64,000 nucleotides of DNA from Thermodesulfobacteriota bacterium (GTDB lineage Bacteria; Desulfobacterota; Desulfobaccia; Desulfobaccales; 0-14-0-80-60-11). The stretch is from the NCBI GenBank assembly GCA_049322355.1, contig JBMORG010000027.1, positions 139,808 through 203,807 on the forward strand, written 5' to 3'. Below are positions 3,796-59,270 of the stretch, in pieces (position 1 is the first letter of the stretch; each line of letters begins with the position of its first letter). A model generated the notes under the pieces. That model searched no databases. It worked only from the letters and a program-made list of their open reading frames with translations, and was not told where the DNA came from. Position numbers and translations under genes: made by a program.

Positions 3796-3874
3796 TGTCA
3801 CCCTGAGCCGGAGGCGAAGGGTCTCAGTTTTATGTTTGAGATTCCTCGCCGCCTTTTGCGGCTCAGAATGACCA
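3796..3874. repeat. Palindromic element, family GTCAyyCTGAGC...GAGAyTC / ...GCTCAGAATGAC (copy a)
   Basis: Imperfect inverted repeat: gtcaccctgagccggaggcgaagggtctca / tgagattcctcgccgccttttgcggctcagaatgac. The same core occurs at 35461 and 57439. Confidence 0.8.
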
Positions 3875-8031: not shown

Positions 8032-8109
8032 AGAGTCCTGCCTTCCGAGTAGATGAGCCAGCGATCCAGGCGATTATAGCGTTTGCCAAAATTTCCTTCC
8101 GATTGCTGG

Positions 8110-8207
8110 TTTTTAAATCCCCCTTAAATCCCCCTTTGTCAAAGGGGGACTTTTAAAGGAAATCCGCTAAGTTCCCCCCTTTGGAAAAGTGGGGATAGGG
8201 GGGATTT
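8110..8207 (+). repeat. About 95-bp AAATCCCCC/GGGGGATTT composite element (family 5, copy 1)
   Basis: tttttaaatcccccttaaatccccctttgtcaaagggggac...tccgctaagttcccccctttggaaaagtggggataggggggattt. It is colinear with 35575-35670, about 75% identical by eye. Confidence 0.8.
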
Positions 8208-20679: not shown

Positions 20680-20923
20680 TTACTCAGGATATTTATATTT
20701 TATAACAAATTTTGTGCAGATATTGTGAAATTACCCACTAGTCCATCCTAAAAGATAATGTTCAATATGTCAAGAGAGAATGAAAACTCTTGCTGCCAGG
20801 CAAACTGTTGTCCCCTATCTTGATTAGGGCCGGAAAATGCTTAAGATTATGACAACTGCATCTTCCGGCCCGAGGAAAAAAAGTAGCAAGGCTATACTTC
20901 TAATACCATTTTGCAGTCGAATG

Positions 20924-20972
20924 GTGGCACAGGCGTCTAGCCTGTGCAGCGCAGGCTAAAGCCTGCGGCTAC
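20924..20972 (+). repeat. Double-hairpin element GTGGCACAGGCGTCTAGCCTGTGCAGCGCAGGCTAAAGCCTGCGGCTACC (family 3, copy 1)
   Basis: Two adjacent hairpins (CACAGGC/GCCTGTG and GCAGGC/GCCTGC). Flanked by outer inverted arms TTGCAGTCGA (20911) and TTGACTGCAA (20986). Confidence 0.8.
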
Positions 20973-21051
20973 CAAAAATAGCCCTTTGACTGCAACTCGG
21001 TATGATGGGGCAAAAAGGGACAGGACATGGCTGCCATATCTGTTAGTGCAA

Positions 21052-21113
21052 GTGGCACAGGCCTCTGGCCTGTGAAAGGCAGGATATGACCGCACATCAG
21101 AGGCCTGTGCCAC
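21052..21113 (+). repeat. Family 3 copy 2: GTGGCACAGGCC...GGCCTGTGCCAC long palindrome
   Basis: gtggcacaggcctctggcctgtgaaaggcagg...cagaggcctgtgccac; the terminal 12-nt arms are perfect inverted repeats. Confidence 0.8.
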
Positions 21114-21140
21114 TTAGATATTTGTGATTAAGAAAGTATA

Positions 21141-21162
21141 GGACAGCCGCCCTCGGCTGTCC
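21141..21162. repeat. GC hairpin GGACAGCCGCCCTCGGCTGTCC
   Basis: Inverted arms GGACAGCCG/CGGCTGTCC in the hdrL/DUF169 divergent spacer. Confidence 0.7.
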
Positions 21163-21220
21163 GGAGGTGTAGGGGAGGCACTGCCCGCCGGCTTCTTTTT
21201 GCGAAAGTTGTTGAGGTTTT

Positions 21221-22204: not shown

Positions 22205-22244
22205 GAAAAGTTATCTATGATAGCTTCGTAAAAAGTCAAAAATT

Positions 22245-22347
22245 TCCTCCCCCTTGATGGGGGAGGGTAGGGTGGGGGTGAAATAATTTGCATCTTTGAA
22301 CAGTTATATTCCCCCCTCCCCTTAATCCCCTCCCACCAGGGGAGGGG
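22245..22347 (+). repeat. Family 1 bipartite element, copy 2
   Basis: TCCTCCCCCTTGATGGGGGAGGGTAGGGTGGGGGTGA ... CCCCCCTCCCCTTAATCCCCTCCCACCAGGGGAGGGG. Flanked by an outer imperfect inverted repeat (GTAAAAAG 22228 / CTTTTTAC 22352). Confidence 0.85.
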
Positions 22348-22445
22348 AAAAACCTTTTTACAAGTTCATCAATCTTTAGGGGAGGGGCTAGGGGCCAGGA
22401 CCCCCGTCACCCTCCCCTTCGTCCACATCCTGGCCCTCCCAAAAC

Positions 22446-29765: not shown

Positions 29766-29785
29766 AAGCAGGGGTCAGTCTGGCA

Positions 29786-29806
29786 GGGCGGGCCTCCGTG
29801 CCCGCC
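29786..29806 (+). repeat. GC hairpin GGGCGGGCCTCCGTGCCCGCC after ahcY
   Basis: Stem GGCGGG/CCCGCC. The same motif occurs reverse-complemented at 21258-21278, and variants at 45878-45896 and 55028-45. Confidence 0.7.
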
Positions 29807-29855
29807 GCCAACCGGGTATTTTTAAGGGTCAGGGGTAATATGCTATTGAAATTAT

Positions 29856-30140
29856 CCGGTTGACTCCCGTAACCACTATATGTTGATTTTTAATTAAAGA
29901 CCCCATAAATGGATTTTTAATAAACTTTCGCTCATAACAAAGCGGCTTTATTCCCTCCCCCTTGATGGGGGAGGGTTAGGGTGGGGGTGGAATCTTAGGT
30001 TATACAGAGGTGTTGCCCAGACAACCCCCTCCCCACCAACCCCCTCCAACCAGGGGAGGGGGAGTTTCCGAATCAGGTTTATCTGATGGAACTTCGGGCT
30101 TCCGCTCATGCCATATATAGTGGTAAAGAGAATCAACCGG
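29856..30140. repeat. About 285-bp MITE-like unit: outer about 26-bp inverted arms enclosing family 1 copy 3
   Basis: Left arm CCGGTTGActcccgtAACCACTATAT (29856-29881); right arm ATATAGTGGTaaagagaATCAACCGG (30115-30140). Family 1 element sits centrally at 29952-30063. Confidence 0.7.
29952..30063 (+). repeat. Family 1 bipartite element, copy 3
   Basis: TCCCTCCCCCTTGATGGGGGAGGGTTAGGGTGGGGGTGG ... CCCCCTCCCCACCAACCCCCTCCAACCAGGGGAGGGGGAG. Confidence 0.85.
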
Positions 30141-30245
30141 ATAGCCCCACATGCTTTTAACTTTTAGCATTGAACTCATCGAGCGGTGGCTTTACTGACT
30201 CTAATCCCTGGTTCCTAACCCCTGGTCCCTGACTCCTGCAACAAA

Positions 30246-35430: not shown

Positions 35431-35572
35431 CACATGAGCTTCTTGCAAAATTCTCCTTATTTGTCATTCTGAGGGAGCGCAAGCGACCGAAGAATCTCAA
35501 TAAGGTCAGTAACATAAGAGATCGTTCGCTGCGCTCAGGACGACAAAACGCCTTTTTGCAAGCTCACATGTG
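35431..35572. repeat. Nested palindrome: outer arms CACATGAGCTTCTTGCAAAA / TTTTGCAAGCTCACATGTG enclosing family 2 copy b (35461-35547)
   Basis: Inner element ttgtcattctgagggagcgcaagcgaccgaagaatctc ... gagatcgttcgctgcgctcaggacgacaa. The outer arms are imperfect inverted repeats. Confidence 0.8.
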
Positions 35573-35574
35573 GA

Positions 35575-35670
35575 TTTTTAAATCTCCCTAAATCCCCCAT
35601 TTACAAATGGAGACTGTTCAAAGGATTCCGCTAAGTTCCCACCTTTATTAGGGGGGGGTTAAGGGGATTC
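35575..35670 (+). repeat. Family 5 about 95-bp element, copy 2
   Basis: tttttaaatctccctaaatcccccatttacaaatggagac...tccgctaagttcccaccttt...ggggggggttaaggggattc. Colinear with 8110-8207. Confidence 0.8.
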
Positions 35671-35714
35671 TGATTTTTATCGCATAACGATATGGAAAGA
35701 TTTTAACCATCGCC

Positions 35715-41256: not shown

Positions 41257-41281
41257 CTTTTTGATTCCTGTCGCCTTGCCT

Positions 41282-41367
41282 CGTTCCCAAGTTGCACTTG
41301 GGAACGCTTTATTGGAGCCAAGCTGGGCTTGGCATCCATTGTCATTCCCAAGTTTAACTTGGGAATG
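41282..41367. repeat. Three consecutive perfect hairpins (family 4) in the methyltransferase-nuoI spacer
   Basis: CGTTCCCAAG-ttgca-CTTGGGAACG (41282-41306), GCCAAGC-tgg-GCTTGGC (41317-41333), CATTCCCAAG-tttaa-CTTGGGAATG (41343-41367). Confidence 0.85.
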
Positions 41368-41412
41368 AGTTGATAAAGCCATGGAAACCAGGCGCAAAGG
41401 CCCGACTACCGG

Positions 41413-43264: not shown

Positions 43265-45877
43265 TCATCCCTGTACCTTGTTGATGTGGTGGTGGGCCAG
43301 GTAAACCGGGGTCTCAAAGAGCTTGCGCCAATCCAGTCGGCGGTGCCGGGGCAGCACCACCACCCCGGGGGCCATGGCTGGCGTTAGCTTGACCTTGACT
43401 GCCAGAGACCCTTTGGGGAGGTGGACGGCGGCCTGGTCATCATCCCGCAGCCCCGATTTTTCGGCATCTTCGGGATGCATAAAGAGGACCGGAGTGGCTT
43501 CCGCCTGCCGGAGGATATCTGAATAGCCGGCCAGTTCTTCGGTGCCGAAGGTCGCCTCCACCAGCAGGAGTTCCACCTTATCGGGAGGCGGTGCTTCCGG
43601 CGGCGCCAAAACTGAAGCAAAATCTTGCGCAGGCTGCGCCTCCGGGAGCAGCCGCAGCCCTTCCGGATGCTGTGCTAAGGACTTCATGCGCCCAAAAACC
43701 GGGTTATGCCGGGCCAGCCAGGTCCAGAGGTCCACAGAATCAAAGACTTTGAGTCCGGAGGTGGCCTGAGTCAGTTCTTGAAAAATCTCCGCCGGGGTGC
43801 GGGGGTCGCTGCCGGGGACATAATTGATAAAAGTCCGGGGCGGATGCAGATCGGGGCTGATGAGGGTGATGGGCGTCCCCCCGAAGTGCACCGGCGGCGC
43901 GGTTTGCGCCCGGCCCTCCTGGTTGACGAAGCAGCTCCCAGTCCGTTCGAACAGAGGGCGGGTGGGCAGCAGCACGTGGGCCCGGCTTACTGTGGGCGAA
44001 GGCAGATAGTCCAGGACCACCAGGAGTTCGAGTCTTTCCAGGGCCCAGGCCAGCCGCTCCTCATCGTAAAAGCTCCAGAAGGGGTCGTTCTCCACCAGGA
44101 CCAGGGCCTTGATCTCCCCCCGGTCAATGGCTTCCACAATCTGGGGGCCGCTTAGGACCGGTTGCCCTGGACCCAGGGGCTCCCCCGGCGCGGCCGGCCC
44201 CCAAGGCCACCAGGCGTTGGGTTGTTCACCGGCTTCAGGCTGGTCTGGCGCAGACATGAGCCCGGCGCCGAAGGCATTGGCCCCGGGCAACAGATAAAAT
44301 AATCCCGCCGCCTTCCCGACGGCCTGCAGGAGCAGAACCAGGTCTGCGGACACGCCGGGTGTGGTCTCCCGGACAATATCGGTGCCGCAGACCACCACGG
44401 GCTCCCGGCTCTTTTGCAGGGCCTCAGCCAGGACCGCAAGTCGGGAAGCCGTTCTGGGGTCTCCGGGATACCGGCCGGGGAGGGCGTCATAGAATTTGCG
44501 GGCCGGCTCCGGCAACCCTGCTCCCTGTTCGGCAGTCAAGGCCCCTTTGGCCAGGACCCCCAGCGCAGCGTCGAGATAACCGGGGGGAACCGCCAGATGT
44601 TCAAACTCACAGGTGAGGGAAACCGGCCTGGGGTCCAGGACCGCGATTTGTGCTCCCCGGCGCCGGGCCTGGCGCAGCGCCAGGGCCAGCATGGGGGCCT
44701 CATTCACCGGGTCCGCCCCTGCCGCCAGAACGAAATCCGCGTCCTCGATCTGGCGCATGGAGACCGCCACCCGTTCATCTAAGCGTTCTACCGCGGTTTT
44801 AGCCTTGCGCTCCAGGGCCGGGTCCCAGAAAAATTGAGGGTCCCGCCAGCCTCGGGTGCGGCAAAAGAGCTTAAGGGCCCCCTGGGTTTCCAGGCTGCTG
44901 CGGGTCCCACCCACGCAGGCCACCGCGCCGGGACCGTATTTGCGGCTGATTTCGGCCAGCCCCTGGGCCGCCGCCTGGATGGCCTCCTTCCAGGGAACTT
45001 CCCGGCCCTTTACGCATGCCTGGCGGGGGCGGTCCGGGCGGTTGGCATAATAAAAACCGTAGCGGCCCCGGTCACAGATGAAATAGCCGTTCACGGCCTC
45101 ATGCAACCGGGCTTCCAGGCGCACCATTTCCCGGTATTGGGCGCTCCCCACGGTGTTGCACCCCAGGGAGCAATGGAGGCACAGCGATGGCCCCCGCTCA
45201 AAATTCCACCGCCGCCCTTTGTATCGGGAGGGTTTATCGGTATAGACCCCGGTGGGGCAGACATCGATGAGATTGCCGGCAAAGGGGCTTTCCAGGGGGC
45301 CGTCGCTGAACCGCCCAAAGTAAGTGCGGCGGCCGATCTGGAGCGCCCCCAGGTCCCGGCCGCCGGCAAATTCCTGGTAGTAGCGGCGGCAGCGCCAGCA
45401 CTGGATGCAGCGGTTCATTTCGTGCTGGACGAACAGACCCAGGTCTTGGTCCTGGTAGGTACGCTTAAGGCCCAGGAAGCGCCTGATGCCATGGCCGCCG
45501 GAGACGGTTTCGTCCTGCAGGAGGCAATGCCCCCCTTCGTCGCATACCGGACAGTCCAGGGGGTGGTCCATCATCAGCCACTCGATGACATATTTCCGGT
45601 AATCCACCGCCTCTGGGTGGGTAGTGGAGACCACCATGCCGTCTTCGGCTTCCACCATGCAGCTCATCTCAATCCCTTTGACCCGTCCCTCCAGGAATTT
45701 GACGGCGCAGACCCGGCAGGCGCCCACGGAGCCCAACGCCGGATGGTAGCAGAACCGGGGAACCATGATTCCCAGGCGCTCCGCGGCCTCCAGCACGTTG
45801 GTGCCCTTGGGGACCTCGATTTCCCGGCCGTCGATGATGAGTTTCGGCAATGGCGGACCTTGTTTAAATTTATCCAT
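43265..45877 (-). CDS. nuoG: NADH-quinone oxidoreductase subunit G (75-kDa, molybdopterin-oxidoreductase fold)
   Basis: Start at MDKFKQG (ATG 45877, GGAGG 7 nt upstream). 2Fe-2S and 4Fe-4S Cys motifs: CYHPALGSVGACRVC, CPVCDEGGHC, CIQCWRC. Confidence 0.9.
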   Translation of the reverse strand: MDKFKQGPPLPKLIIDGREIEVPKGTNVLEAAERLGIMVPRFCYHPALGSVGACRVCAVKFLEGRVKGIEMSCMVEAEDGMVVSTTHPEAVDYRKYVIEWLMMDHPLDCPVCDEGGHCLLQDETVSGGHGIRRFLGLKRTYQDQDLGLFVQHEMNRCIQCWRCRRYYQEFAGGRDLGALQIGRRTYFGRFSDGPLESPFAGNLIDVCPTGVYTDKPSRYKGRRWNFERGPSLCLHCSLGCNTVGSAQYREMVRLEARLHEAVNGYFICDRGRYGFYYANRPDRPRQACVKGREVPWKEAIQAAAQGLAEISRKYGPGAVACVGGTRSSLETQGALKLFCRTRGWRDPQFFWDPALERKAKTAVERLDERVAVSMRQIEDADFVLAAGADPVNEAPMLALALRQARRRGAQIAVLDPRPVSLTCEFEHLAVPPGYLDAALGVLAKGALTAEQGAGLPEPARKFYDALPGRYPGDPRTASRLAVLAEALQKSREPVVVCGTDIVRETTPGVSADLVLLLQAVGKAAGLFYLLPGANAFGAGLMSAPDQPEAGEQPNAWWPWGPAAPGEPLGPGQPVLSGPQIVEAIDRGEIKALVLVENDPFWSFYDEERLAWALERLELLVVLDYLPSPTVSRAHVLLPTRPLFERTGSCFVNQEGRAQTAPPVHFGGTPITLISPDLHPPRTFINYVPGSDPRTPAEIFQELTQATSGLKVFDSVDLWTWLARHNPVFGRMKSLAQHPEGLRLLPEAQPAQDFASVLAPPEAPPPDKVELLLVEATFGTEELAGYSDILRQAEATPVLFMHPEDAEKSGLRDDDQAAVHLPKGSLAVKVKLTPAMAPGVVVLPRHRRLDWRKLFETPVYLAHHHINKVQG

Positions 45878-45952
45878 GGGCGGGCCTCCGCCCGCCATCA
45901 TTACTATCAGGCTAAACTTTAAATAAAGACACGTGTCTTACCCCCGGCGATG

Positions 45953-46000
45953 AAAAATCCCCCCGCCCCCCCTTTTTCAAAGGGGGATTTAAGGGGATTT
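45953..46000 (+). repeat. Family 5 partial copy in the nuoF-nuoG spacer
   Basis: aaaaatccccccgcccccccttttttcaaagggggatttaaggggattt. Confidence 0.7.
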
Positions 46001-46049
46001 TCTTTTTCGGCTTTCACGATAAATCCTGGGGCTACCAATACCATTATCC

Positions 46050-47339
46050 TCACTTAAACGGGCATTTCTTCTGGCTGATGTGCTCCCGCACTTCGTCTTC
46101 GAAGTACTGCAACATACCTTTAACCGGCTCCGCCGCGCCGGGGGCGAAGGCGCAGTAAGCCTTGCCCAGGTGTCCGGTCATTTCCCGGAGCATGGGGATG
46201 AATTCTTCTTTGCCCTCGCCATTTTCCAGGCGCTGAAGCAGATCCTGGATATACGGTATCCCCTGACGGCAGGGGGTACAGAAACCGCAGGATTCCCGGG
46301 CGAAATAATTAATCAGGTTCAGGGTGGCGCCCAGGATGCAGGTCTTCTGGTCAAAAACCATGATGGCGCCGGTGCCGAAGCGGTGCCCCACCGCTTTCAA
46401 TGACTCGATGTCCATGGCCACGTCCATGAACTTGGGAGGCATAAAGCTGGTGGAAGCTCCTCCGGGGATGAAGGCCTTGAATTCGGAACCGGGCAGCATA
46501 CCCCCGGCCACCTCCTCCAGGATCTCCCGGAAAGGAATGCCCATGGGGAGTTCATAGCAGCCGGGCTTATTGACTTTGCCGCTGATGCAATAGAGTTTGT
46601 TGCCGTCCCCGGTTTCGGTGCGGGCCAGCTTCTTGAACCAGGGGCCGCCGTTGCGGATAATCAGCGGCACACAGGCCAGGGTTTCGGCATTATTGACGAT
46701 GGTGGGCCGGTCCCAGAGGCCGGAGTCGGTCATGTGGGCGGTCTTATCGGGATGGGGCCTTTTGCCCATGATGGCCTGGACCTGGGCCGTGGCCTCGCCG
46801 CAGATGTAGCGGCCGGCGCTGCGGTGCACTGCAATGTCAAAGGAAAATTCGCTGCCCAGGATGTTTCTTCCCAAAAGCCCCGCCTCCCGGGCCACTTTCA
46901 GTTCCCGTTCGATGAGCTCGGCATCAATTTCATAGGTGGGCCGGATGAAATAGAAGGCCTTTTGAGCCTTGATGGCGTAGCCGGCCAGGATGATGCCCTC
47001 GATGACCAGATGGGGATTGATGTTGACCAGATAACGGTCCTTGAAGGTGCCCGGCTCCATTTCATCGGTATTGGCGGAGATGTACCGGGGATGGGGGGCG
47101 TCTTCCCGGACAAAGCTCCATTTGCGCCAGGTGGGGAAGCCGGCGCCGCCCCGGCCGGTCAGACCGGATTCTTTGAGGATTTCGATGAGGTCTTTGGGGG
47201 TATATTTCCGCACCGCGTCGGTCAGGCCCTGATAGCCGCCGCCGGCGCGATAGTCCTCCAGGCTGGCGGGACAGGTTATCGGGCAATCTTTTAAGAGCGC
47301 TTGCTCGTACATGCAGTCACCGGCATACGATGAGGTCAC
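46050..47339 (-). CDS. nuoF: NADH-quinone oxidoreductase subunit F (FMN/NADH-binding, 51 kDa)
   Basis: GLTGRGGAGFPTWRKW, ANTDEMEPGTFKDR and ESCGFCTPCR motifs. The start is either GTG 47339 or ATG 47312. Confidence 0.93.
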   Translation of the reverse strand: MTSSYAGDCMYEQALLKDCPITCPASLEDYRAGGGYQGLTDAVRKYTPKDLIEILKESGLTGRGGAGFPTWRKWSFVREDAPHPRYISANTDEMEPGTFKDRYLVNINPHLVIEGIILAGYAIKAQKAFYFIRPTYEIDAELIERELKVAREAGLLGRNILGSEFSFDIAVHRSAGRYICGEATAQVQAIMGKRPHPDKTAHMTDSGLWDRPTIVNNAETLACVPLIIRNGGPWFKKLARTETGDGNKLYCISGKVNKPGCYELPMGIPFREILEEVAGGMLPGSEFKAFIPGGASTSFMPPKFMDVAMDIESLKAVGHRFGTGAIMVFDQKTCILGATLNLINYFARESCGFCTPCRQGIPYIQDLLQRLENGEGKEEFIPMLREMTGHLGKAYCAFAPGAAEPVKGMLQYFEDEVREHISQKKCPFK

Positions 47340-57321: not shown

Positions 57322-57375
57322 TCAATGAACGGAACTTATTTCTGCATTAGGCTAAAGGGGGATTAGGGGCAATAC

Positions 57376-57552
57376 GGTTCACTTAAGCGGTTTTTTCTAA
57401 GGAATTAGAGGGCAGGGCCCACCCCGCATTACATTTTCTTGTCATGCTGAGCGCAGCGAAGCATCTCGTGTTTGGAGATTCTTCGGTCGCCTTTGGCTCC
57501 CTCAGAATGACAAGAGAGATAGATTCATAGTTCCTCTCGGGCTTAAGTGAAC
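57376..57552. repeat. Nested palindrome: perfect 12-bp outer arms GTTCACTTAAGC / GCTTAAGTGAAC enclosing family 2 copy c (57439-57513)
   Basis: Inner element ttgtcatgctgagcgcagcgaagcatctc...gagattcttcggtcgcctttggctccctcagaatgacaa. Family-5-like GGGGATTAGGGG / GGGATTAAGGGGATT motifs flank the outer arms. Confidence 0.85.
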
Positions 57553-57719
57553 AGCATTGGGATTAAGGGGATTATCAAACAGTTATTTAATCCCCCCTGC
57601 CCCCCGAGAAAAGGGGGAAATTCTTTTCTGCGGGAATTTCCTTGGCTGATTCAAGATTATGTCTGAATTAGGTTTTGAAAGGGCTGCAGTTTGCAGCGAA
57701 TCTAGGAGTGGAGATCGTT

Positions 57720-59132
57720 ATGAGCAACCAGGATTGTGATATCGGCCTGATCGGCCTGGGGACCATGGGTCGCAATTTTATCCTGAACATGGCGGACCAC
57801 GGTTTTTCCGTGGCTGCGTATAACCGCACCACCGCGAAAACCAAAGAGTTCATGGAAACCGAAGTTGGCCCCCGTAATATCCAGGCCGGTTATGACTTGA
57901 AAGAGTTTGTCGGCCTGCTGAAACCGCCCCGGGCGCTGATTATGCTGGTGGCGGCCGGCGATCCGGTGGATGCAGTGATCCGGGAATTGCTGCCATTGCT
58001 GGAGCCTGGCGACCTGATCATCGACGGCGGCAACTCCCATTTCACCGACACCAACCGGCGGGGCAAATTCCTGACCGGGAAAAACCTGCAATTTATGGGC
58101 ATGGGAATCTCTGGGGGTGAGGCCGGCGCCCGCTATGGCCCCAGCCTGATGCCCGGCGGCTCCCGAGAGATGTACGACCGGGTGGGCCCCATCCTGGAGG
58201 CGGCCGCGGCCCACGTCAACGGCGACCCCTGCGTCACCTATCTCGGGCCGGGCTCCGCCGGCCACTATGTCAAGATGGTCCACAACGGCATCGAATACGG
58301 CATCATGGAACTGATCGTAGAGACCTATGATCTCCTGAAGCGGGGTCTGGGCCTGACGCCGGAGGATTTGGCCACTATCTACGACACCTGGAACCGGGCC
58401 GAGCTTAACTCCTACCTCATGGAGATCACCGCCAAAATCTTTACCCGAAAAGACGACCGGTCCGATAAGTTTTTAGTTGATATGATTCTGGACAAGGCCA
58501 AGCAGAAAGGCACCGGCATGTGGACCTCCTGGGATGCCATGGACCTCCAGGTGGCGACGCCCACCATCGATGTGGCGGTAGTCATGCGGGACCTGTCGGG
58601 CGCTAAGGAGGAGCGCCAAGCTGCGGCCCGGTTCCTGGTGGGGCCTTCCCCCACCTTTACGGGAGATAAGGAGGGCTTCATCGGCCAGTTGCGAAGCGCC
58701 CTCTACGCTTCCATAATCGCCACCTATGCCCAGGGGATGGCCTTGCTCCAGAAGGCTTCCGCCGTCTATGGCTATAACCTGGACCTGGAGGCCGTGGCGC
58801 GTATCTGGCGGGGCGGCTGCATCATCCGGGCGGCCCTTCTGGAGGATATCCGCAACGCCTACAAAGCCAAGCCTGATTTGGCCAATCTTCTCCTGGACCC
58901 TCGCCTGGGCAAGGAATTTCTGAGCCGGCAATCCGACTTGCGGGAAGTGGTGAAAATGGCCGTCACCCTTGGCCTGCCGGCCCCGGCTTTTATGGCGACC
59001 CTGGGATACTTTGACGCTTATCGCAGCGCCGTGCTGCCCGCCAACCTGATCCAGGCCCAACGGGACTTTTTCGGGTCGCACCAATATGAACGCGTCGACA
59101 CCCCCGGCAGTTTTCATACCGAATGGGAGTAG
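57720..59132 (+). CDS. gnd: 6-phosphogluconate dehydrogenase (decarboxylating)
   Basis: ATG 57720 after AGGAGTGGAG. IGLIGLGTMGRN, GGNSHF and MVHNGIEYG motifs. 470 aa. Confidence 0.95.
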   Translation: MSNQDCDIGLIGLGTMGRNFILNMADHGFSVAAYNRTTAKTKEFMETEVGPRNIQAGYDLKEFVGLLKPPRALIMLVAAGDPVDAVIRELLPLLEPGDLIIDGGNSHFTDTNRRGKFLTGKNLQFMGMGISGGEAGARYGPSLMPGGSREMYDRVGPILEAAAAHVNGDPCVTYLGPGSAGHYVKMVHNGIEYGIMELIVETYDLLKRGLGLTPEDLATIYDTWNRAELNSYLMEITAKIFTRKDDRSDKFLVDMILDKAKQKGTGMWTSWDAMDLQVATPTIDVAVVMRDLSGAKEERQAAARFLVGPSPTFTGDKEGFIGQLRSALYASIIATYAQGMALLQKASAVYGYNLDLEAVARIWRGGCIIRAALLEDIRNAYKAKPDLANLLLDPRLGKEFLSRQSDLREVVKMAVTLGLPAPAFMATLGYFDAYRSAVLPANLIQAQRDFFGSHQYERVDTPGSFHTEWE

Positions 59133-59270
59133 TCAGTAGCCAGTAGTCAGTGGTCAAAAAGACTGGGCTTGGGGAGAAAAAGGGAGGGTAGCCAGGGAAT
59201 AATGTTGCAAAATAATGCAAAACGGATTTGAGTTTTTGCTGACTGCTGGCTACTGACCACTGACTACTGC
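59129..59270. repeat. Long inverted repeat of (AGTAGTCAGTGGTC/AGTAGCC) units spanning the gnd-zwf spacer
   Basis: Left arm gtagtcagtagccagtagtcagtggtca (it overlaps the gnd TAG stop). Right arm gctgactgctggctactgaccactgactactgc. About 80 nt lie between the arms. Confidence 0.8.

Follow-up and report, generated by a model that had tools for sequence, protein, structure and literature searches.

The window, a stretch of 64,000 nt from an uncultured Desulfobaccales bacterium, contains five sites at which a hairpin-forming repeat lies between a second, outer pair of inverted arms (Table 1). The sequence-only reading had described these five nested arrangements, and all five arm pairs were located where it placed them, with deviations of 2 nt at most. 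Its count of "at least five" holds, and a sixth case, absent from its list, was added between 45909 and 46035. The arms of two sites are longer than it had given, reading TGATAGCTTCGTAAAAAG / CTTTTTACAAGTTCATCA at site 2 and ATACCATTTTGCAGTCGAA / TTTGACTGCAACTCGGTAT at site 5.

Table 1. Composite elements, their parts and neighbouring repeats in the window (positions with a C prefix refer to other contigs of the assembly).
Feature	Position	Strand	Description
Site 1, MITE-like composite S1	29853..30149	+	~297 nt; copies align end to end
S1 terminal inverted repeats (the outer arms of the sequence-only reading)	29853-29888 and 30113-30149		about 36 nt
Family 1 core within S1, REPIN-like	29948..30065	+	two inverted GGGGAGGG-type hairpin units, variable spacer
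Site 2, Family 1 long subfamily	22217..22373	+	~20-nt arms ATGATAGCTTCGTAAAAAGTC and CCTTTTTACAAGTTCATCAAT; core 22241-22350
Site 3, shell-A MITE with Family 2 cargo	35432..35569	+	target-site duplication and recurrent arms
Site 3 target-site duplication	35432-35435 and 35566-35569		ACAT
Site 3 terminal inverted repeats	35436-35451; 35554-35565		GAGCTTCTTGCAAAAT; TTTTGCAAGCTC
Site 3 Family 2 hairpin	35460-35545		8-9 nt from either arm
Site 4, shell-F MITE	57360..57570	+	4-5 related copies
Site 4 terminal inverted repeats	57370-57388; 57541-57559		CAATACGGTTCACTTAAGC; GCTTAAGTGAACAGCATTG
Site 4 duplicated target, ~10 bp	57360-57369 / 57560-57570		GGATTAGGGG / GGATTAAGGGG; part of F4-type repeat tail
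Shell-F relative	C28:82786-82863		site 4 arms around REP hairpin only, without Family 2
Site 5, shell-H arms around Family 3	20903..21003	+	arms ATACCATTTTGCAGTCGAA, TTTGACTGCAACTCGGTAT; Family 3 at 20923-20970
Sixth nested case	45909..46035	+	Family 3 second hairpin (GGCTAAA ... TAAATCCTGGGGCTACC) split in loop
F4 repeat	35571..35678	+	AAATCCCCC...GGGGGATTT; immediately after site 3
Further F4 copies	8107-8206 and 45955-46004		B arm at 8076-8095 precedes the first
REP doublet	41280..41369	.	CTCGTTCCCAAGTTGCACTTGGGAA; family flanking two RAYT genes elsewhere in the genome
Family-3-type REP doublet and GTAG-type REP	21050..21165	.	doublet with perfect 18-nt arms AAGTGGCACAGGCCTCTG; GTAG-type REP TAGGACAGCCGCCCTCGGCTGTCC

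To score arm strength, the 110-nt flanks were compared for local complementarity (match +1, mismatch -1.5). Site 1 (25/29 complementary at 29853-29881 / 30115-30143, score 19) and site 4 (17/19 complementary, score 14) each lie beyond chance, because random pairs almost never reach such scores: among 300 random non-coding pairs per family, at most 0.3% scored ≥14 and none ≥16. Sites 2, 3 and 5 score just 8.5-9 against a random median of 7 and are singly not significant, with the pairing at site 3 requiring indels; their arms are credible only because the same arms recur around other copies.

The S1 copy of the window is truncated at its left end, complete copies beginning with TGGGGG. Some composites are sparse, and S1 has only two copies in the source genome; together with at least six in two congeners, eight copies could be aligned end to end with unrelated flanks, and Family 1 is central in all eight, across three species. 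The element folds into one long hairpin (DNA MFE -55.1 kcal/mol, z = -4.6 versus shuffles). The suggestion that outer arms might be terminators did not hold, as the terminator scan at site 1 gave no match to the arms and no arm pair resembles an intrinsic terminator. S1 is missing from the orthologous ahcY-pgm spacer in seven congeners; these spacers, which carry a different element set in each species, are too diverged to yield a base-precise empty site.

At site 2, the 8-mer arm motif (≤1 mismatch) lies to the left of 13 and to the right of 11 among 76 full Family 1 copies, and longer arms, TGATG..TTCGYAAAAAGTC / GACTTTTTACGAGTTCATCA, are present in about 15 Family 1 copies. Besides site 3, shell A with Family 2 has eight more full-length copies, and the cargo of site 4 comprises a degenerate REP-like stretch plus Family 2 (57440-57513). 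Site 5 is a long subfamily of Family 3, a repeat in which a REP hairpin, GGCACAGGC..GCCTGTGC, precedes a second one, GCAGGC-TAAA-GCCTGC. H-type arms surround at least six more Family 3 copies, and they also enclose two GTAG-type REPs (C25:119863-119986, C25:141505-141638) and Family 2 (C18:47024-47172). No clear target-site duplication was seen for S1, for the Family 1 long arms or for the H copy of the window (sites 1, 2 and 5). The insert of the sixth case, about 100 nt, bears half of one F4 repeat, and its right junction, TTTCACGAT/AAATCC (junction at the slash), conforms to the consensus TTTCACGGT/AAAGCC of the 13 other interrupted copies.

Flanking arms across the genome

Across the genome, 657 segments (85 kb) have at least three further copies, and 123 Family 1, 99 Family 2, 73 Family 3 and 89 F4 loci were counted. 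The DNA outside long ORFs amounts to only about 10% of the genome and much of it is filled by repeats, the spacers being mosaics of several repeat families with rapid turnover between congeners. The Rfam scan of the whole window at gathering thresholds returned no family.

Flanking inverted arms (score ≥12) were more frequent than in random non-coding DNA for Family 2 (21% of copies versus 1%), Family 3 (22% versus 0.7%), Family 1 (4.9% versus 1.0%) and the fourth family, F4 (11.8% versus 1.0%). About half of the complementarity excess was retained when left and right flanks were swapped between copies (Family 2: 21% true, 8.6% swapped, 1% random), and the arms are therefore shared sequences and not site-specific ones. 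One eventuality that would have told against the sequence-only reading, that the arms are simply part of longer conserved elements, is what was found: the arms recur elsewhere round the same or another core. Judged from this recurrence, the outer arms at the five sites are terminal inverted repeats (TIRs) of longer MITE-like units, and the claim that the inner elements had entered the loops of pre-existing local hairpins was not borne out for the five window cases, whose arms recur as MITE ends. Unique local hairpins were rejected as a source of the arms on account of recurrence at other loci, and so were flank-derived palindromes, since nearly all arms here belong to recurrent families and are not copies of the local flank. 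Several "insertions" returned by the automatic scan for filled and empty sites were discarded. They came down to variability in Family 1 spacers, Family 1 doublets in tandem, differing distances between adjacent REP and F4 copies, and, at C1:292 kb, a repeat in coding sequence.

Shells, cargos and targets

The shells are units of 92-300 nt without an ORF, and their terminal repeats measure about 36 nt in S1, 16 nt in A, 23 nt in C, 19 nt in F and about 20 nt in H, the end repeats including GGGCATAAGCGCTAACTTAAG, GAGCCTCTTGCAAAAT, CAATGCTGTTCACTTAAGC, ATACCAAGTTGC and TGGGGGTATCCGGTTGA. Inverted arm pairs were tabulated for shells B (12) and C (4), as well as for D, E, F and H, and solo terminal repeats are abundant, with 87 matches to the B arm as an example. 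Target-site duplications (TSDs) are 4 bp in shell A (GATT, GCTG, TTTT and AAAA at copies other than site 3), 7-9 bp in C and about 9-10 bp in F, while shell H duplicates TA or TTA, and B carrying Family 2 duplicates TA. The cargos vary within a shell: Family 2, Family 3 or two REPs in A/D; none, Family 2 or F4 in B; a REP alone or a REP with Family 2 in F; and two REPs, Family 3 or Family 2 in H, with GTAG-REP doublets present as cargo in both H and D. A clean empty shell was found for B only (C10:385107-385198), and shell F without Family 2 differs by more than a clean excision. Nesting reaches up to four layers. As is characteristic of MITEs, the copies are dispersed with unrelated flanks and have both filled and empty paralogues.

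Although it fails for the five window cases, hairpin-loop insertion in general is real in this genome. Shell C lies in the loop of GGGGAGGG-type (Family-1-type) hairpins in 4/4 copies here and in 2/2 copies of congener G006, and thus shows loop-specific insertion of the kind known for IS1397 in 6/6 copies from two species. The host loops read ATCAAAG, ACCAGG, ACTAGG, CTGGTG/CAGGG, TACTGG and ATCG/ATTG, each being duplicated on both sides of the insert, so that the duplicated sequence differs per copy; the host Family 1 unit reaches asymmetrically past the insert. Among Family 3 copies, about 35 retain an intact second hairpin and 14 have its TAAA loop interrupted, the inserts ("X") all sharing the same junction and the same orientation (14/14). 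Both of their junctions read TAAA, a hairpin (TGGCC-GATTTT-GGCCA) lies subterminally on the left, and no such insert was seen outside a Family 3 context. The interrupted copies span three Family 3 subfamilies with identical junctions, and they may represent a single event spread by copying or gene conversion; either a 4-bp target-site duplication or a single origin would give the same picture as single-strand insertion of the IS200/IS605 type.

Other targets lie outside loops, namely AAAA in the arm of shell B, entered by shell A, and T(T)A within the tail of F4, a tail that receives shell-H and shell-F MITEs; for an H element lying in F4, 16 empty paralogues were found. About ten shell-A copies occupy one shared TTGCCAAAA/G site. 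Filled and empty paralogues demonstrate the targets of shells C, A, H and F and of the X inserts.

Transposases and related systems

Inverted REPs flank each of the four RAYT genes detected in the genome, whose ORFs of 170-182 aa contain the HxH motif and reach 87-116 bits against NCBIfam NF047646 (cut-off 80). All four lie outside the window, in agreement with the earlier statement that no such enzyme is encoded there. RAYT-2 is flanked by GGCACAGGC..GCCTGTGCC (Family 3 hairpin 1), RAYT-1 by GTAG-GACAGCC REPs, and RAYT-3 and RAYT-4 by CGTTCCCAAG..CTTGGGAACG; the REP families at 21050..21165 are those flanking RAYT-2 and RAYT-1. No Family 1, Family 2 or F4 sequence occurs in the flanks of the four genes, and Family 1, in spite of its REPIN doublet layout at 123 loci, has no cognate among them. 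The guess of a Y1/RAYT transposase thus stands as far as REP-flanked RAYT genes exist, and falls short where insertions can be read, which show TIRs and TSDs; because the units with a readable insertion direction carry these, DDE-type transposition is favoured over RAYT.

The search for an autonomous partner in this assembly revealed no inverted pair of shell arms 0.5-3.5 kb apart, and the short IS-like contigs gave no match to the shell arms. The transposase matches of the assembly, one IS110 and three DDE_Tnp_1, have ends unrelated to the shells. IS66 was considered as partner of shell C for the ATAAGCG motif in its end repeat and rejected, IS66 being absent from the assembly. No IS200-type TnpA adjoins the Family 3 loop inserts.

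Insertion of repeats into the hairpin loops of other repeats is already known in other bacteria, the insertion point of IS1397 being the loop of a palindromic unit. Shell C resembles it in lying in Family 1 loops (6/6). Shell C differs in being non-autonomous and 190 nt long and in duplicating 7-9 bp, compared with 3-4 bp for IS1397, and its target is a C/G-homopolymer-rich REPIN-like hairpin in place of the enterobacterial REP. As summarised in PMC3184786, REP/BIME sequences are the preferred target of IS1397/ISKpn1, IS621 and other IS110-family elements (Wilde et al. 2001; Choi et al. 2003; Tobes and Pareja 2006). QMITE2 of Coxiella burnetii is a TIR-bounded MITE of 150-190 bp with 7-11-nt direct repeats and a REP hairpin inside, its shorter copies being "essentially REP elements", and IS1111 inserts into the GTAG REP within it (Wachter et al. 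2018, PMC5896051). The Desulfobaccales genome shows the same layout of shell and core and the same targeting of one element by another; unlike QMITE2/IS1111, many shells are combined here with many cargos in up to four layers, and the inserting units are MITEs and not full IS, in an assembly without the autonomous partner. GTAG/CGTC REP dimers within long family-specific palindromes were reported from Anabaena variabilis, Thermomicrobium roseum and Halothiobacillus neapolitanus, empty "target palindromes" lacking in 2/3 of these species and the association not being followed further there (Di Nocera, De Gregorio and Rocco 2013, PMC3733652). The palindrome-in-palindrome arrangement is shared, and empty AAAAGTC/GACTTTT palindromes are likewise missing here: a genome-wide search for AAAAGTC(0-14)GACTTTT as the vacant palindromic target of Families 1 and 2 gave one match only. 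The outer palindromes here, in contrast, behave as MITE ends with TSDs and alternative cargos.

The four REP-flanked RAYT genes, the GTAG tag on some REP families and the REPIN layout of Family 1 are features shared with REP/REPIN-RAYT systems (Nunvar et al. 2010; Bertels and Rainey 2011, PMC3116915; Ton-Hoang et al. 2012), from which Family 1, Family 2 and F4 differ in having no linked RAYT. The Family 3 loop inserts recall IS200/IS605 "peel and paste" in that they are without TIRs, keep one orientation, lie 3′ of a fixed TAAA in the loop and end in TAAA; unlike IS200/IS605, they have no IS200-type TnpA beside them. We know of no description of classical REPINs as cargo of TIR-bounded MITEs, and to our knowledge RAYT-driven DNA insertion has never been directly shown for any RAYT. 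MITE insertion specific to loops and an orientation-locked hot spot next to a RAYT-type REP both occur in clean natural form in this genome, and each could serve to test whether RAYTs can insert DNA.

Origin of the nested arrangements

The reading that we consider probable is that two sorts of non-autonomous palindromic DNA interact in this genome, shells being copied whole with their cargo and landing inside other repeats. The first sort comprises hairpin modules (Families 1-4, GTAG-type REPs, the CGTTCCCAAG REP), and the REPs of the four resident RAYT (Y1/HUH) transposases are among them. The second is the MITE-like shells (A/D, B, C, E, F, H and S1), TIR-bounded and TSD-making, with a hairpin module inside. 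The recurrent copies show that shell and cargo are copied as one unit, each window case being a single composite copy with the shell TIRs as its arms. Deeper nesting would follow from a preference of the composites for targets inside other repeats, with shell C entering the Family 1 loop, X inserts the TAAA loop of Family 3, A the B arm, and H and F the F4 tail. The shells are probably mobilised in trans by DDE transposases from outside the assembly, while the inserts locked in one orientation in the Family 3 loop may stem from a strand-specific Y1/RAYT-type reaction. The first entry of a cargo into its shell is inferred.

For that first entry, it is possible, though rather doubtful, that the hairpin modules (chiefly Family 2, but also Families 1 and 3 and the REPs) are tiny mobile elements in their own right, which enter palindromic MITEs close to or at the apex, a single-stranded loop in the folded MITE, and that the loaded shells then amplify. 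Six shell types with alternative cargos, one of them occurring empty, the central position of Family 2 in A/D (8/8 and 5/4 nt), its arm symmetry across phyla (below) and the REP dimers inside longer palindromes of Di Nocera et al. (2013, PMC3733652) would all be accounted for. However, the cores do not sit centrally in B, C, E and F, nor in A where it carries Family 3 (46/2 nt), no base-precise filled/empty pair was found for a core within a shell, and both the scarcity of "empty" AAAAGTC..GACTTTT palindromes in the genome and the lack of a RAYT associated with Family 1, Family 2 or F4 speak against it.

We regard as unlikely that the nesting is a by-product of arm capture or recombination, in which solo TIRs that happen to flank any hairpin are co-mobilised with it in the manner of composite transposons bounded by MITEs, or palindromes exchange their cargos through template switching or gene conversion. 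The numerous solo arms, the variable and asymmetric arm-to-core distances and the mosaic spacers with their fast turnover between congeners are in line with such a process, and the identical junctions of interrupted Family 3 copies in three subfamilies fit gene conversion; nevertheless, it explains neither why shell C enters loops repeatedly and with base precision, leaving duplications specific to each site, nor why Family 2 is symmetric within its arms across phyla.

The mechanism of the sequence-only reading, in which each core independently entered an unrelated local hairpin loop by means of a hairpin-recognising Y1/RAYT transposase, is very improbable. It can draw on the RAYT genes, one with Family-3-type REP flanks, on loops being genuine targets elsewhere in the genome and on the nearly perfect centring of Family 2 in shell A. 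Yet 5/5 arm pairs recur elsewhere at the same core spacing, swapped flanks keep about half of the signal, no arm pair is terminator-like (scanned at site 1), and at sites 3 and 4 the TSDs lie outside the arms, therefore the whole composite was inserted. Random insertion with survival only in dispensable, repeat-filled spacers is scarcely credible as the sole cause, for although the spacers, about 10% of the genome, are largely repeats and purifying selection surely contributes, shell C falls 6/6 into one kind of 4-6-nt loop that makes up about 0.6% of non-ORF DNA (estimated as 123 loci × 2 hairpins × about 9 nt), about ten shell-A copies share a single site, and the 14 Family 3 inserts have one position and one orientation.

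If shells and cargos are copied as composites, the spacer hairpin "vocabulary", including that inside the nuo operon, would consist of few shells combined with few cargos, with shells targeting other repeats, and composites should not be annotated singly as terminators or regulatory hairpins.

The literature search by sequence string for Family 2 returned nothing relevant. More than 120 contigs from at least 12 phyla contain its 26-nt arm without a single change, and among 54 Family 2 hairpins from many phyla symmetric lineage-specific arms were observed in 24%, against 0.6% with swapped flanks. One speculative proposal, which we rate as improbable, is that the hairpin modules, Family 2 above all, are a separate class of ultra-small mobile DNA inserting strand-specifically into single-stranded palindrome apices, at MITE centres and in REP loops, perhaps through RAYT-type Y1 cleavage beside a bound REP, the lineage-specific arms of Family 2 being its targets; insertion at apices would then stack hairpins within hairpins and supply MITEs with new cargo. 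The occurrence of a near-identical Family 2 arm in many phyla merits a separate study.

Outer arms and the elements they belong to

All five nested arm pairs and their cores were found where the sequence-only reading had placed them (sites 1–5, table). The outer arms had been read as unrelated hairpins entered by the cores; instead, at all five sites they are the ends of longer conserved elements, since the arms recur together with their composites at other loci. The genome under study (3.62 Mb, 29 contigs) is rich in such repeats, with self-comparison giving 657 short segments, 85 kb in total, that have at least three other copies each. Profile searches located 123 loci of Family 1 (two inverted GGGGAGGG-type hairpins forming a doublet), 99 of Family 2 (a hairpin whose arm starts with TGTCATTCTGAG), 73 of Family 3 (GGCACAGGC..GCCTGTGC, then GCAGGC-TAAA-GCCTGC) and 89 of the fourth repeat family, F4 (AAATCCCCC...GGGGGATTT).

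The full 294-nt stretch of site 1 is repeated at C12:31720-31996, with at least six more full copies in two congeners. Eight copies of this MITE from three species can be aligned from TGGGG(G/C)TATCCGGTTGA to TCAACCGGATAGCCCCA; their flanks are unrelated, and Family 1 is central in all eight. The arms of site 2 (~20 nt) are the hallmark of a long Family 1 subfamily. Site 3 is a MITE-like unit with terminal inverted repeats, shell A (GAGCCTCTTGCAAAAT), enclosing Family 2, and eight more full copies exist. A 4-bp duplication borders the unit: ACAT here, and GATT, GCTG, TTTT or AAAA at other shell-A copies. The arm read earlier at this site is present, but part of it is the ACAT duplication. Site 4 is shell F (CAATRCTGTTCACTTAAGC), having 4–5 relatives and a ~10-bp duplication of an F4-type tail, while at site 5 shell H (ATACCAAGTTGC...) encloses Family 3, and its arms recur on at least six more Family 3 copies.

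A simple complementarity score was used for the arms, with random non-coding pairs as the control. Sites 1 and 4 (scores of 19 and 14) exceed what is usual for such pairs, at most 0.3% of which reach ≥14; sites 2, 3 and 5 (8.5–9) were each non-significant taken singly. Genome-wide, 21% of Family 2 and 22% of Family 3 copies lie between arms scoring ≥12, compared with ~1% of random non-coding pairs. With left and right flanks taken from different copies, 8.6% and 11.7%, respectively, still reached ≥12; as swapped flanks keep much of the signal, the excess is real but comes largely from arm sequences common to the copies.

The comparison of orthologous spacers proposed in the earlier reading was run on the ahcY-pgm spacer (64–260 nt) of seven congeners, all without the site-1 element. 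These are different species with fast-evolving spacers, and the spacer (window 29766-30245) is wholly different among the seven, each having its own repeat families, while the coding flanks are 81–90% identical; spacer content therefore turns over much faster than genes. Family 2 was found in this spacer in two of the seven, and GTTGCCAGTAGTCAGTAGCCAGT units, similar to the AGTAGTCAGTAGCCAGT type, fill it in G013 and G010. Elsewhere in G013 (C361:1675-1993), a site-1 MITE copy is apparently split by ~119 nt in the right half of the Family 1 core, on the basis of a BLAST match in two pieces (q1048-1135 and q1139-1250), and may represent a further nested insertion.

Locations of repeat elements and RAYT genes (positions without a contig are in the window)
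Feature	Position	Description
Site 1	29853-30149	Family 1 core
Site 2	22217-22373	Family 1 core
Site 3	35432-35569	Family 2 core
Site 4	57360-57570	Family 2 core
Site 5	20903-21003	Family 3 core
Sixth nested case	45909-46035	remnant of Family 3 second hairpin, TAAA loop split; insert carries half F4
Family 2	35460-35545	
Family 2	57440-57513	
Family 2	3796-3872	
Shell B arm	8076-8095	TATAGCGTTTGCCRAAAGTT
CGTTCCCAAG REP	41280-41369	
AGTAGTCAGTAGCCAGT-type units	59128-59269	29-nt inverted repeat; another repeat family
RAYT gene	C23:61760-62020	inverted REPs around it
RAYT gene	C23:98181-98459	inverted REPs around it
RAYT gene	C10:160040-160225	inverted REPs around it
RAYT gene	C29:175412-175648	inverted REPs around it

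Exchangeable cargo, nesting and hairpin loops

Nesting is a real process in this genome. The same shells enclose different hairpin modules: Family 2, Family 3 or two GTAG-type REPs in shell A/D; two REPs, Family 3 or Family 2 in shell H; a REP alone (C28:82786-82863) or with Family 2 in shell F. Shell B is empty at C10:385107-385198 and otherwise holds Family 2 (12 pairs) or F4. A genome scan gave 56 clusters of paralogues differing by an insert, 34 of them with inserts ≥50 nt, where events are counted as copies, not independent insertions. Curation of the filled and empty paralogues revealed a shell-H element within an F4 tail (16 empty paralogues), B with Family 2 inserted at TA within Family 3, B with F4 inserted into B with Family 2, and a composite of A and Family 3 at TTGCCAAAA/G in the B arm (slash, junction), a site holding ~10 shell-A elements. 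At C23:138106-138365, the layers run in order from B arm through A, Family 3 and an insert in the Family 3 loop to F4. The B arm occurs at 87 sites genome-wide, many of them solo half-sites, often beside F4 or shell A.

Hairpin loops are entered in two settings. All copies of the shell-C MITE (~190 nt, end repeats GGGCATAAGCGCTAACTTAAGAC, cargo Family 2), four here and two in congener G006, lie in a Family-1-type hairpin loop, with the loop sequence duplicated on either side and different in each copy; such loops make up only ~0.6% of DNA outside long ORFs by our own estimate, so these positions are not due to chance. The TAAA loop of the second Family 3 hairpin is intact in ~35 copies and split in 14, all with the junctions ...GCAGGCTAA/A... 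and ...TTTCACGGT/AAAGCCTGCGGC and inserts in one orientation, carrying one REP, two REPs or F4. One such remnant, the sixth nested case, lies between ORFs 43265-45901 and 46050-47339. No such insert was seen outside the Family 3 loop context, and the 14 may share a single origin, having spread through copying or gene conversion.

These behaviours are known from other systems. In Coxiella burnetii, the MITE QMITE2 has 7–11-nt direct repeats and an internal GTAG REP targeted by IS1111, short copies of QMITE2 being "essentially REP elements" (PMC5896051); Di Nocera et al. described longer family-specific palindromes with REP dimers inside in three genera (PMC3733652); and IS1397, IS621 and other IS elements target REPs, as reviewed (PMC3184786). 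By comparison, the nesting here is rich and multi-layer, and in a new lineage.

Family 2 across phyla

Among the matches listed, the 26-nt Family 2 arm GTCATTCTGAGCGNAGCGAAGAATCT has exact copies in at least 120 contigs; at least 12 phyla are represented, among them Nitrospirota, Chloroflexota, Acidobacteriota, Bacteroidota, Planctomycetota and Verrucomicrobiota, as well as Omnitrophota, Cyanobacteria, clostridia, Saccharimonadales and others, with Pedobacter, Mucilaginibacter and Calothrix among the cultured isolates. A literature search by sequence string found no papers on this arm. Symmetric, lineage-specific inverted arms enclose 24% of 54 full Family 2 hairpins, against 0.6% with swapped flanks. 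Family 2 may represent either the conserved centre of a very ancient MITE superfamily or a mobile hairpin entering palindrome centres.

Candidate enzymes

The Y1/RAYT-type machinery suggested earlier is encoded in this genome, where four ORFs of 170–182 aa satisfy the NCBIfam RAYT (REP-associated tyrosine transposase) model. Family 1, Family 2 and F4 have no link to any of the four. Their flanking REPs are the first hairpin of Family 3 (one gene), GTAG-type REPs (one) and the CGTTCCCAAG REP (two). Genomes in the REPIN literature mostly carry one or a few RAYT genes, compared with four in 3.6 Mb here. A Y1-type reaction would be most plausible for the orientation-locked loop inserts beside a RAYT-type REP. 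From their terminal inverted repeats and target-site duplications, the shells look to be mobilised in trans by DDE enzymes; this assembly contains no IS whose ends match those of a shell. The sole IS110-family transposase is on a 1.9-kb contig (C7:1-1942) that ends in Family-3-like REP hairpins (GGTAGCACAGGCTTTCAGCCTGTGACCGGCACAGAC..GCCTGTGCTACC), consistent with the known tendency of IS110-family elements to insert at REPs.
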